From NCBI RefSeq assembly GCF_963921235.1, contig NC_086097.1:98582001-98646000 (forward strand): 64,000 nt of DNA, written 5' to 3'. Every line of letters starts with the position of its first letter. Within the stretch, counting starts at the first letter, position 1. Below, in pieces: positions 5,611 through 63,999 of the stretch. The position numbers were made by a program, and so were the translations under genes. Below the pieces are notes generated by a model. The model had not been told where the DNA came from and searched no databases. It saw nothing but the letters and a program-made list of their open reading frames with translations. The DNA comes from Mobula hypostoma. Its lineage: Eukaryota.

Positions 5611-5823
5611 GTGTTTCGCAAGACAAGTCTGGTTCCAGCATGGGCCCTTCAGGCAGGGGCAGGGGACGTCCAAAAGGATCTGGGACTACATCAAAGAGTT
5701 CAGGAAAGAATCGAGGGAGAAAGTCCACTGCTGGTAGTGCAGCAGCAATGGCAGGAGCCAGGGCAGGGGCAGCAGCCGCTTCAGCTGCTGCATATGCAGC
5801 ATATGGGTACAGTGTGTCCAAAG
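5611..5823 (+). CDS. INO80: INO80 penultimate coding exon, with an AT-hook-like RGRPKGS motif and an Ala-rich tract
   Basis: Acceptor ccttactttgcAG, donor AAG|GTaagg, 213 nt, phase 1/1. Encodes ...GRGRGRPKGSGTTSKSSGKNRGRKSTAGSAAAMAGARAGAAAASAAAYAAYGYSVSK, nearly identical to recalled human RKSTAGSAAAMAGAKAGAAAASAAAYAAYGYNVSK. Confidence 0.97.
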
Positions 5824-8597: not shown

Positions 8598-8818
8598 GTA
8601 TGGCAAATAGTGGCCCAGGACAGTCTCCTCTCTCCCGGCCAACTAGCAGCAGCACATTTGGAATGATGAGCACCTCCCCCATGGGCTCACCGCACAGCAT
8701 ATCAAACAGTGTACCAGGAACACCACAAACCCCAGCCGACACTAGCACACCTGCTCTATCACCTGGCAAGAAAGGCAGCAGGGGTCTGGTTCAGCCTCCA
8801 TCGGCTGGGGGCCGGTAA
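8598..8818 (+). CDS. INO80: INO80 terminal coding exon to TAA stop
   Basis: Acceptor tttcctctttactctccAG, phase 1, in frame with the previous exon. Ser/Pro-rich tail ending PPSAGGR*; human INO80 ends ...NPSGGR* as recalled. Confidence 0.92.
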
Positions 8819-27473: not shown

Positions 27474-28176
27474 AACACACACTGATACAGATACGTCCCC
27501 ATACACAGACTGATACAGATACATCCCCACTCACACACTGATACAGATACATCCCCACTCACACACACTGATACAGATACGACCCACTCACACACACTGA
27601 TAGATACATCCCCACTGACACACTGATACAGATACATCCCCACTCACACACACTGATACAGATACATCCCCACTCACACACTGATACAGATACATCCCCA
27701 CTCACACACACTGATACAGATACATCCCCATACACAGACTGATACAGATACAACCCACTCACACACACTGATACAGATACGTCCCCATACACACACACTG
27801 ATACAGATACGACCCACTCACACACTGATACAGATACGTCCCCATACACACACTGATACAGATACGACCCACTCACACACACTGATACAGATACGTCCCC
27901 ATACACACACTGATACAGATACATCCCCACTCACACACTGATACAGATACGTCCCCACTCACACACTGATACAGATACGACCCACTCACACACACTGATA
28001 CAGATACGTCCCCATAAACACACTGATACAGATACGTCCCCACTCACACACACATACACACACCTGATACAGATACGAACCACTCACACACACACTGATA
28101 CAGATACGACCCACTCACACACACTGATACAGATACGACCCACTCACACACACACTGATACAGATACGTCCCCACT

Positions 28177-28207
<31 letters not shown>

Positions 28208-28434
28208 ATACAGATACGTCCCCACTCACACACTGATACAGATACGTCCCCACTCACACTGATACAGATACGTCCCCACTCACACACACACTGATACAGA
28301 TACAACCCACTCTCACACACTGATACAGATACGTCCCCACTCTCACACACACTGATACAGATACGACCCACTCACACACACACTGATACAGATACGTCCC
28401 CACACACACACACACACACACTGATACAGATACG

Positions 28435-28496
<62 letters not shown>

Positions 28497-29085
28497 ATAC
28501 AGGTACATCCCCCTCACACACTGATACAGATACGTCCCCACTCACACACACACTGATACAGATACGTCCCCACTCACACACACTGATACAGATACATCCC
28601 CACACACACACACACTGATACAGATACGTCCCCACTCACACACACACTGATACAGGTACATCCCCACTCACACACACACTGATACAGATACGACCCACTC
28701 ACACACACACTGATACAGATACGTCCCCACTCACACACAGACACACACACTGATACAGATACGTCCCCACTCACACACACTGATACAGATACGTCCCCAC
28801 TCACGCACACACTGATACAGATACGACCCACTCACACACACTGATACAGATACGACCCACTCACACACACACTGATACAGATACGTCCCCACTCACACAC
28901 ACACACACACACACACACTCTGATACAGATACGTCCCCACTCACACTGATACAGATATGTCCCCACTCTCACACACACTGATACAGATACAACCCACTCT
29001 CACACACTGATACAGATACGTCCCCACTCTCACACACACTGATACAGATACGACCCACTCACACACACACTGATACAGATACGTG

Positions 29086-29134
<49 letters not shown>

Positions 29135-29282
29135 ATACAGATACGTCCCACACACACACACACACGCACACACACACACTGATACAGGTACATCCCCCTC
29201 ACACACTGATACAGATACGTCCCACTCACACACACACTGATACAGATACGTCCCCACTCACACACACTGATACAGATACATC

Positions 29283-29323
<41 letters not shown>

Positions 29324-29461
29324 ATACAGATACGTCCCCACTCACACACACACTGATACAGGTACATCCCCACTCACACACACACTGATACAGATACGAC
29401 CCACTCACACACGCACTGATACAGATACGTCCCCACTCACACACACTGATACAGATACGTC

Positions 29462-29506
<45 letters not shown>

Positions 29507-32500
29507 ATACAGATACGTCCCCACTCTCACACACACTGATACAGATACGACCCACTCTCACACACTGATACAGATACGTCCCCACTCTCACACACACTGA
29601 TACAGATACGACCCACTCTCACACACTGATACAGATACGACCCACTCACACACACACTGATACAGATACGTCCCCACACACACACACTGATACAGATACG
29701 TCCCCACTCACACACACACTGATACAGATGTGACCCACTCACACACACACTGATACAGATATGTCCCCACTCGCACACACTGATACAGATACGTCCCCAC
29801 TCTCACACACTGATACAGATACGACCCACTCACACACACACTGATACAGATACATCCACACACACACTGATACAGATACATCCCCACTCACACACACTGA
29901 TACAGATACGTCCCCACTCACACACACACACTGATACAGATACGTCCCACTCACACACACTGATACAGATACGTCCCCACACTCACACACTGATACAGAT
30001 ACGACCCACTCACACACTGATACAGATACGTCCCCACACACACACACTGATACAGATACATTCCTACTGTCACACACTGATACAGATATGACCCACTCAC
30101 ACACACTGATACAGATACATCCCCACTTACACACACACTGATACAGATACGTCCCCACTCACACACACACTGATACAGATACGACCCAGTCACAATCACT
30201 GATACAGATACATCCCCACTCACAATCACTGATACAGATACGTCCCCACTCACACACACTGATACAGATACGTCCCCACAATCACACACACTGATACAGA
30301 TACGTCCCCACTCACACACTGATATAGATACGTCGCCACTCTAACACACACTGATACAGATACGTCCCACTCACACACACACTGATACAGATACGTCCCA
30401 CACACACACACTGATACAGATACGTCCCCACTCACACACACACTGATACAGATACGTCCCACACACACACACACACACACACACTGATACAGATATGTCC
30501 CCCCCCACACACACACACACACTGATACAGATACGTCCCACACACACACACACACTGATACAGGTACATCCCCACTCACACACTGATACAGATACGTCCC
30601 ACTCACACACACACTGATACAGATACGACCCCACTCTCACACACACTGATACAGATACGTCCCACTCACACACACACTGATACAGATACGTCCCACTCAC
30701 ACACACACTGATACAGATACGTTCCCACACACACACACATACACACACTAATACAGATACGTCCCCACTCACACACACTGATACAGATACTTCCCCACTC
30801 ACACACAGACACACACACTGATACAGATACGTCCCACACACACACACACTGATACAGATATGTCCCCACTCACACACTGATACAGATACGTCCCCACTCT
30901 CACACACACTGATACAGATACGACCCACTCTCACACACTGATACAGATACGACCCACTCACACACACTGATACAGATACGTCCCACTCACACACACACTG
31001 ATACAGATACGTCCCCACTCACACACACACTGATACAGATACGTCCCACACACACACACACACACACTGATACAGATATGTCCCCCCACACACACACACA
31101 CACACTGATACAGATACGTCCCACACACACACACACACTGATACAGGTACATCCCCACTCACACACTGATACAGATACGTCCCACTCACACACACACTGA
31201 TACAGATACGACCCCACTCTCACACACACTGATACAGATACGTCCCCACTCACACACACTGATACAGATACGTCCCCACTCACACACAGACACACACACT
31301 GATACAGATACGTCCCACACACACACACACTGATACAGATACGTCGCCACTCACACACTGATACAGATACGTTCCCACTCTCACACACACTGATACAGAT
31401 ATGACCCACTCTCACACACTGATACAGATACGACCCACTCACACACACTGATACAGATACGTCCCACTCACACACACACTGATACAGATACGACCCACTC
31501 ACACACACACTGATACAGATACGTCCCCACTCACACACACACTGATACAGATATGACCCACTCACACACACTGATACAGATACATCCCCACTCACACACA
31601 CACTGATACAGATACGACCCAGTCACAATCACTGATACAGATACGTCCCCACTCACACACACTGATACAGATACGTCCCCACACACACACACACACTGAT
31701 ACAGATACGTCCCCACTCACACACTGATACAGATACGTCCCCACTCTCACACACACTGATACAGATACGACCCACTCTCACACACTGATACAGATACGAC
31801 CCACTCACACACACTGATACAGATACGTCCCACTCACACACACACTGATACAGATACGTCCCCACTCACACACACACTGATACAGATACGTCCCACACAC
31901 ACACACACACACTGATACAGATATGTCTCCCCACACACACACACACACTGATACAGATACGTCCCACACACACACACACACTGATACAGGTACATCCCCA
32001 CTCACACACTGATACAGATACGTCCCACTCACACACACACTGATACAGATACGACCCCACTCTCACACACACTGATACAGATACGTCCCACTCACACACA
32101 CACTGATACAGATACGTCCCACTCACACACACACTGATACAGATACGTTCCCACGCACACACACATACACACACTAATACAGATACGTCCCCACTCACAC
32201 ACACTGATACAGATACGTCCCCACTCACACACAGACACACACACTGATACAGATACGTCCCACACACACACACACTGATACAGATACGTCCCCACTCACA
32301 CACTGATACAGATACGTCCCCACTCTCACACACACTGATACAGATACGACCCACTCTCACACACTGATACAGATACGACCCACTCACACACACTGATACA
32401 GATACGTCCCACTCACACACACACTGATACAGATACGACCCACTCACACACACACACTGATAGAGATACGTCCCCACTCACACACACACTGATACAGATA

Positions 32501-33262
32501 TGACCCACTCACACACACTGATACAGATACATCCCCACTCACACACACACTGATACAGATACGACCCAGTCACAATCACTGATACAGATACGTCCCCACT
32601 CACACACACTGATACAGATACGTCCCCACACACACACACACAGTGATACAGATACGTCCCCCCACACTCACACACACACTGATACAGATACGTCCCCACA
32701 CACACACTGATACAGATACGTCCCCACTCACACACTGATACAGATACGTCCCACACACACACACTGATACAGATACGTCCCCCCACACTCACACACACAC
32801 TGATACAGATACGTCCCCCCACACTCACACACACACTGATACGGATACGTCCCCCCACACTCACACACACACTGATACAGATACGTCCCCCCACACTCAC
32901 ACACACACTGATACGGATACGTCCCCACTCTCACACACTGATACGGATACATCCCCCCACTCACACACACTGATACAGATACGTCCCACACACACACACT
33001 GATACAGATACGTCCCCCCACACTCACACACACACTGATACGGATACGTCCCCACTCTCACACACTGATACGGATACATCCCCCCACTCACACACACTGA
33101 TACAGATACGTCCCACACACACACACTGATACAGATACGTCCCACACACACACACTGATACAGATACGACCCCACTCTCACACACACTGATACAGATACG
33201 TCCCACTCACACACACACTGATACAGATACATCCCCACACACACACTGATACGGATACATCC
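27474..33262. repeat. 5.8-kb compound minisatellite: core CTGATACAGATACGTCCCCACT plus variable (CA)n, unit mostly about 26-34 bp
   Basis: Directly visible tandem array with occasional long (CA)n expansions, e.g. 28436-28492. Confidence 0.98.
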
Positions 33263-60400: not shown

Positions 60401-63055
60401 CTGGTGGTTGTAATTGGTGTAGGGTTAGTGTCAGGAGGTTACTGGTGGTAATTGGTGTAGGTTAGTGTCAGTAGGTGACTGGTTGTAATTGGTGTAGGGT
60501 TAGTGTCAGGAAGTGACTGGTTGTAATTGGTGTAGGGTTAGTGTCAGGAGGTGACTGGTTGTAATTGGTGTAGGGTTAGTGTCAGGAGATGACTGGTGGT
60601 AATTCGTGTAGGGTTAGTGTCGGGGGTGAGTGGTGGTTGTAATTGGTGTAGGGTTAGTGTCAGGAGGTGACTGGTGGTTGTAATTGGTGTAGGGTTAGTG
60701 TCAGGAGGTGACTGGTGGTTGTAATTGGTGTAGGGTTAGTGTCAGGAGGTGACTGGTTGTAATTGGTGTAGGGTTAGTGTCAGTAGGTGACTGGTTGTAA
60801 TTGGTGTAGGGTTAGTGTCAGGAGGTGACTGGTTGTAATTGGTGTCGGGTTAGTGTCAGGAGGTGACTGGTGGTTGTAATTGGTGTAGGGTTAGTGTCAG
60901 GAGGTGACTGGTTGTAATTGGTGTAGGGTTAGTGTCAGGAGGTGACTGGTTGTAATTGGTGTAGGGTTAGTGTCAGGAGGTGACTGGTGGTTGTAATTGG
61001 TGTAGGGTTAGTGTCAGGAGGTGACTGGTGGTAATTGGTGTAGGGTTAGTGTCAGTAGGTGACTGGTTGTAATTGGTGTAGGGTTAGTGTCAGGAGGTGA
61101 CTGGTTGTAATTGGTGTAGGGTTAGTGTCAGGAGGTGACTGGTGGTTGTAATTGGTGTAGGGTTAGTGTCAGGAGGTGACTGGTGGTTGTAATTGGTGTA
61201 GGGTTAGTGTCAGTAGGTGACTGGTTGTAATTGGTGTAGGGTTAGTGTCAGTAGGTGACTGGTGGTTGTAATTGGTGTAGGGTTAGTGTCAGGAGGTGAC
61301 TGGTTGTAATTGGTGTAGGGTTAGTGTCAGGAGGTGACTGGTGGTTGTAATTGGTGTAGGGTTAGTGTCAGTAGGTGACTGGTTGTAATTGGTGTAGGGT
61401 TAGTGTCAGGAGGTGACTGGTTGTAATTGGTGTCGGGTTAGTGTCAGGAGGTGACTGGTGGTTGTAATTGGTGTAGGGTTAGTGTCAGGAGGTGACTGGT
61501 GGTTGTAATTGGTGTAGGGTTAGTGTCAGGAGGTGACTGGTGGTTGTAATTGGTGTAGGGTTAGTGTCAGGAGGTGACTGGTGGTTGTAATTGGGGTAGG
61601 GTTAGTGTCAGGAGGTGACTGGTGGTTGTAATTGGTGTAGGGTTAGTGTCAGTAGGTGACTGGTGGTAATTCGTGTAGGGTTAGTGTCGGGGTGAGTGGT
61701 GGTTGTAACTGGTGTAGGGTTAGTGTCAGGAGGTGACTGGTGGTAATTCGTGTAGGGTTAGTGTCGGGAAGTGACTGGTTGTAATTGGTGTAGGGTTAGT
61801 GTCAGGAGGAGACTGGTTGTAATTGGTGTAGGGTTAGTGTCAGGAAGTGACCGGTTGTAATTGGTGTCGGGTTAGTGTCAGGAGGAGACTGGTTGTAATT
61901 GGTATAGGGTTAGTGTCAGGAGGAGACTGGTTGTAATTGGTATAGGGTTAGTGTCAGGAGATGACTGGTGGTAATTGGTGTAGGGTTTGTGTCAGGGGTT
62001 CGTGGTGGTTGTAATTGGTGTAGGGTTGGTGTCAGGAGGTGACTGGTTGTAATTGGTGTCGGGTTTGTATCAGTAGGTGACTGGTTGTAATAGAAACATA
62101 GAAAATAGGTGCAGGAGTAGGCCATTCGGCATTTCGAGCCTGCACCGCCATTCAGTATGATCATGGCTGATCATCCAACTCAGAACCCTGCACCAGCCTT
62201 CCCTCCATACCCCCTGATCCCTTTAGCCACAAGGGCCATATCTAACTCCCTCTTAAATATAGCCAATGAACTGGCCTCAACCGTTTCCCGTGGCAGAGAA
62301 TTCCACAGATTTACCACTCTCTGTGTGAAGAAGTTTTTCCTAATCTCCGTCCTAAATTGTTTCCCCTTTATCCTCAAACTGTGACTCCTCGTTCTGGACT
62401 TCCCCAACATCGGGAACAATCTTCCTGCATCTAGCCTTTCCAATCCTTTTAGGATTTTATACGTTTCAATAAGATCCCCCCTCAATCTTCTAAATTCCAA
62501 TGAATGTAAGCCTAGTCGATCCAGTCTTTCATCATATGAAAGTCCTGCCATCCCAGGAATCAATCTGGTGAACCTTCTTTGTACTCCCTCTATGGCAAGG
62601 ATGTCTTTCCTCAGATTAGGGGACCAAAACTGCACACAATACTCCAGGTGTGGTCTCACCAAGGCCTTGTACACCTGCAGTAGTACCTCCCTGCTCCTGT
62701 TCTCGAATCCTCTTGCTATGAATGCCAGCATACCGTTCGCCTTTTTCACTGCCTGCTGTACCTGCATGCCCACTTTCAATGACTGGTGTAGGGTTAGAGT
62801 CAGGGGGTGACTGGTGGTTGTAATTGGTGTAGGGTTAGCGTCAGGAGGTGACTGGTGGTTGTAATTGGTGTAGGGTTAGTGTCAGGAGGTGACTGGTGGT
62901 AATTGGTGTAGGTTAGTGTCAGGAGGTGACTGATGGTAATTGGTGTAGGGTTAGTGTCAGGAGGTGACTGGTGGTTGTAATTGGAGTAGGGTTAGTGTCA
63001 GGGGGTGACTGGTGGTAATTGGTGTAGGGTTAGTGTCGGGGGTGACTGGTGGTTG
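36430..63055. repeat. 26.6-kb satellite array, unit 38 or 41 bp: TTGTAATTGGTGTAGGGTTAGTGTCAG(G/T)AGGTGACTGG(TGG); roughly 650 units by length
   Basis: Directly visible; for example GGGTTAG recurs at 36601 and 36639. Interrupted only by the CR1 at 62091-62790. Units are more divergent at 61650-62090. Confidence 0.99.
62091..62790 (-). mobile_element. Young 5'-truncated CR1 LINE inserted in the satellite
   Basis: Uninterrupted 199-aa ORF2 C-terminus (62180-62779; LVRPHLEYCVQFWSP, RRLRGDLIETYKIL, NFFTQRVVNLWNSLP), intact 3' UTR and a TTTCTATG-type tail. Confidence 0.96.
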
Positions 63056-63797
63056 CATGGACTGCCAGATCTCTATGAACCCACTTCTGTGTTTATGTCC
63101 ATTGACACACTGACTTGGTGTTGTGAGGCTACTCCAGTGTTGTTTTCTATTACACTCTGTTTCCTTGGACCAATTTTTTGTTGAAATATGGACGTCAGCC
63201 AGCTATTTTCCTTCAGCATCCATCAGCTTACAACTCCAATGTAAGACCTGGATGAGGCATTGCTCTCTTTCCATGGTGGATGCACAAGTTATTTTGAATT
63301 GTTGTCCCTGTGTCCTTCACTCTGCAGACTTTACAAGAGTCCTTTATTGAACCATATAACAATTACAGCACAGAAACAGGCCATCTCAGCCCTTCTAGTC
63401 TGTGCTGAACTCTTACTATCTATCCCTACTTGTGAATTATTACAGAAAGAGAACTAGAAAAATTAGAATATCGTAAAAAGTTGTCTGCATTTAATATTTT
63501 CAAGCACATGATCATCACAGCAGTATGAGAAAGCATGTGACTGCTAACGAACTTTGGTTGCCAGTTTGGCCTACAGCTGTAGGTTGGTGAGAATGCACAA
63601 GTCTTGTATTGCTATTGCTTCCACACGTGAACACAGAGAAAGCAGAACCCTCTGCAGTCAATGGCAGTCTGACCTTGACTCTGGAGGGCCACCCGTTTGA
63701 GTTTGGAGGGCGTTGTCCTGTGACGGTGAGCTGTGTGTGGCTGGAGGCAGGACCTCCACACAGGGAGGAAACCCAGCTGCTGGTAAGGGAAATGGAT

Positions 63798-63999
63798 GGC
63801 CTCGATCACAAACTGGTGCGGGTCCTCGCTGTGCAGCAGTGACGAGTCACAGCGAGTAGTCTGGGTTGTAGCCCAGATGGCCACTGCAGGCCATGATCTG
63901 TGCTGGCTCAGCCTGGTCCAGGTACAGTGGGCTGCCTGCCGTGGCTGTGTACATTGGTGGCACCCTGCCCCCCCCCCCCATCCATCCATGGAACTGTAC
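63798..63999 (-). pseudogene. CHAC1: Disrupted CHAC1-like (glutathione-specific gamma-glutamylcyclotransferase) terminal exon, continuing beyond the right edge of the window
   Basis: Frame from 63999 reads VQFHGWMGGGGRVPPMYTATAGSPLYLDQAEPAQIMACSGHLGYNPDYSL*L, then after a frameshift EDPHQFVIEA. Aligns to recalled human CHAC1 VTFY...AYVATPQNPGYLGPAPEEAIATQILACRGFSGHNLEYLLRL...QDEHLAAI. Position convergent with INO80 matches human synteny. Confidence 0.75.

Follow-up and report, generated by a model that had tools for sequence, protein, structure and literature searches.

Does the minus strand at the far end of this window, the whole 64,000-nucleotide stretch of Mobula hypostoma DNA analysed here, hold the remains of CHAC1, and, if so, has the lineage of this ray lost the gene? 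CHAC1 is described as an inducible enzyme that degrades glutathione in the ATF4 stress response, as a promoter of ferroptosis and as a reported blocker of Notch1, and CHAC2 as its older paralog, of lower efficiency (PMC12756093, the part of the review available). An earlier note on this DNA, made from the sequence alone, described a ChaC C-terminal pattern on the minus strand, outside the open reading frame track, and the frame, the motifs and their coordinates were all found to be as it described: an open frame carrying ChaC-type motifs runs from 63999 to 63850 and meets a TGA at 63849-63847, and the ten codons of EDPHQFVIEA are located, as claimed, in another frame, the next one, at 63827-63798. 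The homology extends further up than had been noted, a V-x-F at 63999-63991 agreeing with two near-invariant CHAC1 columns. Codon 63951-63949 of the relic retains the Tyr of human Y143, which is counted among the active-site residues of human CHAC1 (PMC12756093, in the part of the review available), and human CHAC1 residues 143-187 align to 63951-63829 with an E value of 0.003. The GC content is 59-65% over the relic and about 41-44% downstream. The relic is cut by the window end, so that the catalytic Glu (human E115) falls about 30 nt past it, and the YGSL motif and exons 1-2 are also beyond. The parts of the relic and its flank are as follows.

63850..63999, minus strand: open piece of the CHAC1 last-exon relic, equal to human residues ~126-180 by profile and column comparison
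63968..63979, minus strand: run of 12 G in a variable loop, two bases shorter in organism B (see below)
63901..63918, minus strand: stretch in which 12 nt, equal to four residues, are lost in frame ahead of Gln-Ile; placement within the stretch is approximate
63847..63849, minus strand: premature TGA at a conserved Arg, human R181 (Arg in 99% of the reference set)
63828..63846, minus strand: stretch containing the frame-shifting 17-nt deficit, probably several small deletions
63798..63827, minus strand: second coding piece, which carries the near-C-terminal E-D-x-H-x-F-x-I-E motif and scores highest among 127,930 positions
63487..63797, minus strand: end of the former coding region with its 3' flank; organism D is ~90% alike up to 63792
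63605..63610, minus strand: AATACA hexamer, a possible poly(A) signal variant (a weak hint from the contig ends of runs X9 and X10)

The vertebrate references against which the relic was judged were 10 metagenome loci (six vertebrate CHAC1-like, one unrelated) and then 120 listed CHAC1 proteins. A profile of these 120 proteins, run over 3648 window chunks, gave 19.1 bits on the relic (E 1.7e-4); the runner-up among the non-overlapping chunks reached 2.0 bits, and nothing else was found in the window. The comparison of vertebrate CHAC1 with the window by tblastn, which the earlier note had called for, made the relic the best window match for 118 of the 120 proteins, with an E value below 1e-3 for 58 of them. 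A matrix of the C-terminal motif independently ranked the second piece first among 127,930 window positions (28.5 versus 17.5). A chance resemblance in GC-rich DNA would account for the searches that came back empty: Pfam returned 0 families for four readings of the relic, phmmer against the PDB returned 0 matches, the Atlas search found nothing ChaC-like, and profiles of 30 and 10 bacterial ChaC proteins ranked the relic first of the 3648 chunks at E values, 0.25 and 0.28, that are not significant. The cut-off of PF04752, a significant match to which the earlier note had set as a test, was not reached, because the piece is short and broken, and the Pfam and bacterial results together indicate that the signal needs vertebrate references. 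A word-indexed protein search gave five candidates, none with E ≤ 10, and viral contigs scanned for ChaC yielded no relative. Against chance stand the two pieces, which were scored separately, are each the best in the window and follow one another in the correct order, 43 nt apart, as well as the syntenic place, which is the one expected, and nucleotide alignments that exceeded all 200 shuffles for five of six vertebrate exons. Coincidence therefore retains next to no probability, and it is as good as certain that the minus strand from 63999 to 63798 is a CHAC1 relic. As a separate observation on the bacterial set, 10 of the 30 proteobacterial ChaC proteins (among L085-L096) have motifs far nearer to those of the eukaryotic enzymes than to those of E. 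coli ChaC.

CHAC2 has the family and the motif skeleton in common with the relic. Profiles built from 10 proteins each, the CHAC2 set being chosen for its similarity to the solved human structures 6K95, 6KY0 and 6KY1, gave 16.0 bits for CHAC1 and 4.4 bits for CHAC2, and at nine columns diagnostic of the two paralogs the relic codon was nearer to CHAC1 in seven and to CHAC2 in one, with one tie. CHAC2 sits in a different block from the relic, ERLEC1-CHAC2-ASB3, which is conserved in sharks and rays (PMC9808068, the parts of the source available). Judged on its codons, the relic is of CHAC1 type and not CHAC2; a CHAC2 pseudogene was rejected on the scores of 16.0 versus 4.4 bits and the CHAC1-type state of 7 of the 9 columns. 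With vertebrate CHAC1 (glutathione-specific gamma-glutamylcyclotransferase 1, also called Botch; PF04752; for example coelacanth P0052 and human P0271) the relic shares the collinear motifs of the last exon, the conserved residue at 21 of 32 near-invariant columns, a Tyr at the Y143 position, CHAC1-specific residues and a tail-to-tail INO80 neighbour. It differs in that vertebrate CHAC1 is intact, whereas the relic, with its premature stop, losses of 12 and 17 nt and ten further replacements at near-invariant positions, cannot encode the fold.

The lesions that the earlier note had pointed out were borne out by spacing and by column comparison. Leu-to-Gln spacing is 21 nt in the relic versus 33 in vertebrate CHAC1, an in-frame loss of 12 nt that corresponds to the roughly four residues said to be missing before QI, and Asn-to-Asp spacing is 43 nt versus 60, a frame-shifting loss of 17 nt that matches the figure given for the deletion before the D-x-H motif. 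The TGA does replace a conserved Arg and would cut off the last 42 of 222 residues in human numbering; CGA>TGA is its likely origin, as proposed, though AGA>TGA would need no more than one step either. Among 32 near-invariant codons (columns at least 95% conserved in the reference set), 21 are intact and 11 are changed, each of the changed ones being a single base away from the conserved residue, although one of these columns (Ala->Pro beside the 12-nt gap) hinges on where the gap is placed; random codons would all be one base off about once in 100,000 trials (~1e-5). Working CHAC1 proteins are far more constrained at these columns: 97 of the 120 have no change, 18 have one, one has two and four have four. 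The relic has 11 changes over 73 replacement sites, a decay of 0.15 (95% interval 0.08-0.25), a figure in which a few of the changes may predate the death of the gene, the comparison having been made without a shark sequence. Eleven changed codons out of 32 fit a long neutral decay, of about 15%, and the one-base changes at invariant codons indicate that the loss is not recent. From the codons, purifying selection is judged to be lost at the relic, and a complete open frame for the cyclotransferase fold is absent.

Lesions of this kind could come from a faulty assembly, or from a null allele or a recent loss confined to this individual or species. The contigs of 4 of 24 sequencing runs were compared with the window at a likeness threshold of 80%, and all of the 80 window words sampled were present in four runs that may be the source of the assembly. 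In organism B, a second species about 2.4% apart, one contig covers 63388-64000; it differs by 15 substitutions and has just two gaps, one of 1 nt at 63939, in the region of the Y-x-A-T motif, and one of 2 nt in the G run. Since these are its only gaps, both deletions are common to B, which has a further local frameshift besides, although its 1-nt loss was seen at a depth of 5.3 and could be an error. Between the window and organism B the relic differs by 4.5% and its flank by 1.6% (p 0.03), assuming that nine unlisted substitutions of B lie beyond 63799; the divergence would thus give no sign of constraint. Run X9, which bears the same species label and comes from another study, yielded a 260-nt contig (63604-63863) with no difference from the window, TGA included, the stop standing 14 letters from the contig end; outside the source sample this is the only confirmation of the stop, a point in favour of error or private loss. 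Against these stand the presence of all sampled words in the four source runs, the deletions held in common with B, by which assembly error was rejected, and the 11 one-base changes at invariant codons, which cannot be recent. An error or a private loss is accordingly held to be highly improbable.

Two further organisms reach the flank. A 200-nt contig of organism C lies at 63608-63807, and one of organism D agrees with 63487-63792 at 90%, beyond which its remaining 613 letters are unmatched. Because the decay of 0.15 exceeds the roughly 0.05 per lineage accumulated since the split from D, the gene was probably dead at or before that split, even if the GC-rich exon has evolved at a faster rate. 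Organism D has a TGA at 63756-63758, 23 codons into the second frame, where the window has TGG; it comes just after F-L-P, which may equal the C-terminal L-P of CHAC1, and this TGA could be the original stop of the gene, no longer present in the Mobula window. The contigs of X9 and X10 end at 63604 and 63608, at most four bases apart, at the AATACA hexamer. This hints weakly that a 3' RNA end survives there and that low-level transcription of the dead 3' end may persist, although taking X9 for RNA is a guess. These two small runs, from different studies, cover only the 63604-63863 part of the unique sequence. Runs X21 and X22, from the study of X9, contain next to none of the window words and have no bearing on expression. 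The tail of a high-copy repeat is inserted in the 3' flank of the relic (63350-63417); thousands of contigs stack there in all four runs compared, and it accounts for the small shares of window words in several runs.

The position of the relic relative to INO80 can be read from two exons on the opposite strand.

5611..5823, plus strand: INO80 exon near the 3' end, the synteny anchor (human INO80 1417-1489, E ~1e-20; splice sites read)
8598..8818, plus strand: probable last coding exon of INO80 (splice phase and stop from the sequence; identity inferred)

The INO80 exons are on the plus strand, the probable last one ending at 8818, and the relic is on the minus strand, so the 3' end of INO80 faces that of the relic, in agreement with the tail-to-tail arrangement that the earlier note gives for human, where CHAC1 and INO80 are also in opposite orientation. 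In the mouse the order is Dll4-Chac1-Ino80 (a table in PMC3435402, a source available in part). The 3' ends of INO80 and the relic are 55 kb apart, and no gene was recognised between them among the nine frames scanned. On this evidence of position, the relic is at the place of the ortholog on the visible side, that of INO80, and DLL4 would lie beyond the window on its other side. The bit scores, the lesions and the INO80 exon together uphold the reading of a broken CHAC1 last exon next to INO80. A single satellite makes up 25.7 kb of the interval (36430-62091 and 62784-63055; a 38-bp unit, ~652 copies, 92% matches); each unit contains GGGTTAG (617 times), TTAGGG is absent, and a LINE-like fragment at ~62092-62783 separates the satellite from a short tail of seven copies. 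With a second array at 27475-33246 (a CA-rich 32-bp unit, ~184 copies), tandem repeats make up more than half of the INO80-CHAC1 interval. Elsewhere, a croaker gene model of 722 residues (P0348) has Delta-like 4 domains fused with a ChaC domain. Two genes were probably merged in the annotation, which shows that DLL4 and chac1 are adjacent and co-oriented in a teleost.

Other vertebrates indicate what should be expected at this place. CHAC1 is kept in lamprey (a CHAC1-like protein), bony fishes and tetrapods. In a set of 37 chordates, which includes four sharks, one chimaera and no ray and in which some models come from homology-based annotation, ChaC proteins fall into two orthogroups: CHAC2, present in all 37, and another, present in 35 (PMC8455134, the tables available). 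The table attaches no human name to the latter, which by elimination should be CHAC1; on that condition, at least three of the five sharks and chimaera have a member (PMC8455134, same tables), and a loss in all cartilaginous fishes was rejected on this count. In the little skate, identifiers follow position, and chp1, exd1, ino80 and dll4 are LEUER_G0005633-5636, leaving no gene number between ino80 (5635) and dll4 (5636), while the CHAC2 block is present (psme4 5073, erlec1 5075, chac2 5076, asb3 5077); chac2, dll4 and ino80 are all in the list of mouse-skate-chicken one-to-one orthologs (PMC9605692, the files available). The name chac1 had 0 matches in eight supplement files of that paper, evidence that amounts to absence from one annotation, 89.1% BUSCO-complete, and not to a search of the DNA. 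Among the selected genes listed in the available part of another skate paper (PMC10115646), Chac2 is present and chac1 has 0 matches; the supplements of a paper on the stingray kidney (PMC9396271) gave 0 matches. No CHAC1 protein with a shark or ray name occurred among the 120 listed of 243 matches, the 120 listed of 945 or the 20 clusters, and, in the same partial lists, 49 unnamed matches were 66-99% identical to other matches, none standing apart as a separate lineage; this is not taken as evidence of absence.

The earlier note had left open whether the ortholog is lost or the relic is a dead tandem duplicate. The second of these would place an intact CHAC1 just past 64000, between the relic and DLL4, with the relic as its decayed spare; the window does end inside the relic, and a true loss is less expected for a gene that is so widely kept and whose knockdown in zebrafish embryos is described as lethal (PMC12756093, in the part of the review available). 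No second contig over the core of the relic was found at 80% likeness in the runs of B (flat depth, one contig) or D (no contig), a threshold below which an intact copy could fall if it were about 20% diverged and carried two gaps. Other ChaC-like pieces, N- or C-terminal, were not found in the 64-kb window either (best E 0.61 with an N-terminal profile). Because the skate annotation holds no gene between ino80 and dll4 and no second contig was found over the core in these two runs, loss of the ortholog is favoured and the duplicate is considered unlikely. A copy of CHAC1, perhaps a retrocopy, might instead have reached a different chromosome and the parent at INO80 have died, so that the enzyme would still be made. 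This relocation would explain how the locus can be dead and the skate interval empty although the gene matters in other animals; yet chac1 is missing from the one-to-one ortholog list of the skate that contains chac2 (PMC9605692, as far as available), and none of the CHAC1 matches in the partial lists bears a shark or ray name, which leaves relocation quite doubtful. We consider it likely that the relic is a unitary pseudogene, the remnant of the single ancestral CHAC1 between INO80 and, presumably, DLL4, and an intact copy is probably absent elsewhere in the genome. As sharks apparently keep the gene, the skate annotation is without it and this ray has an old relic, a single early loss in batoids is the simplest history, and we lean slightly towards one old loss near the root of rays and skates, with the gene kept by sharks and chimaeras; it may instead have died independently in skates and in the line of this ray.

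The loss of noggin1 (PMC10869764, the part available) resembles this case in that a conserved gene is gone from a conserved block of cartilaginous fishes while its paralogs are kept, and that of TLR15 (PMC9808068, likewise in part) in being defined by synteny, in a cartilaginous lineage and with paralogs kept. Those losses span sharks and rays together, whereas CHAC1 was apparently kept by most sharks (as far as these sources and the orthogroup tables are available), and, unlike in those cases, a readable remnant survives, so that its lesions and their timing are open to study. Gene loss itself is ordinary, and what is of interest is the gene and the lineage, no report of CHAC1 loss in rays having been found in the literature, as judged from titles and the first lines of abstracts with few subscription papers covered.

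The locus makes no enzyme, having probably been inactivated long ago and having changed freely since. The breakdown of cytosolic glutathione would most likely be left to CHAC2 and other glutathione-degrading routes, and, by analogy with mammals and zebrafish, two activities of CHAC1, the glutathione degradation that surges under stress and the reported block of Notch1 maturation, would be either absent or taken over. Mice with inactive CHAC1 are reportedly viable, which makes it plausible that the gene can be dispensed with. If the loss was a single one near the root of rays and skates, batoids would be natural CHAC1 knockouts that develop normally with CHAC2 alone, and an old Delta-ChaC-INO80 trio would be broken in its middle. 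As both flanking genes remain together in the skate, it becomes testable whether CHAC1 or something else holds the linkage of DLL4 and INO80, and a vertebrate lineage without CHAC1 would show that the roles of this gene are dispensable or have been assumed by CHAC2.
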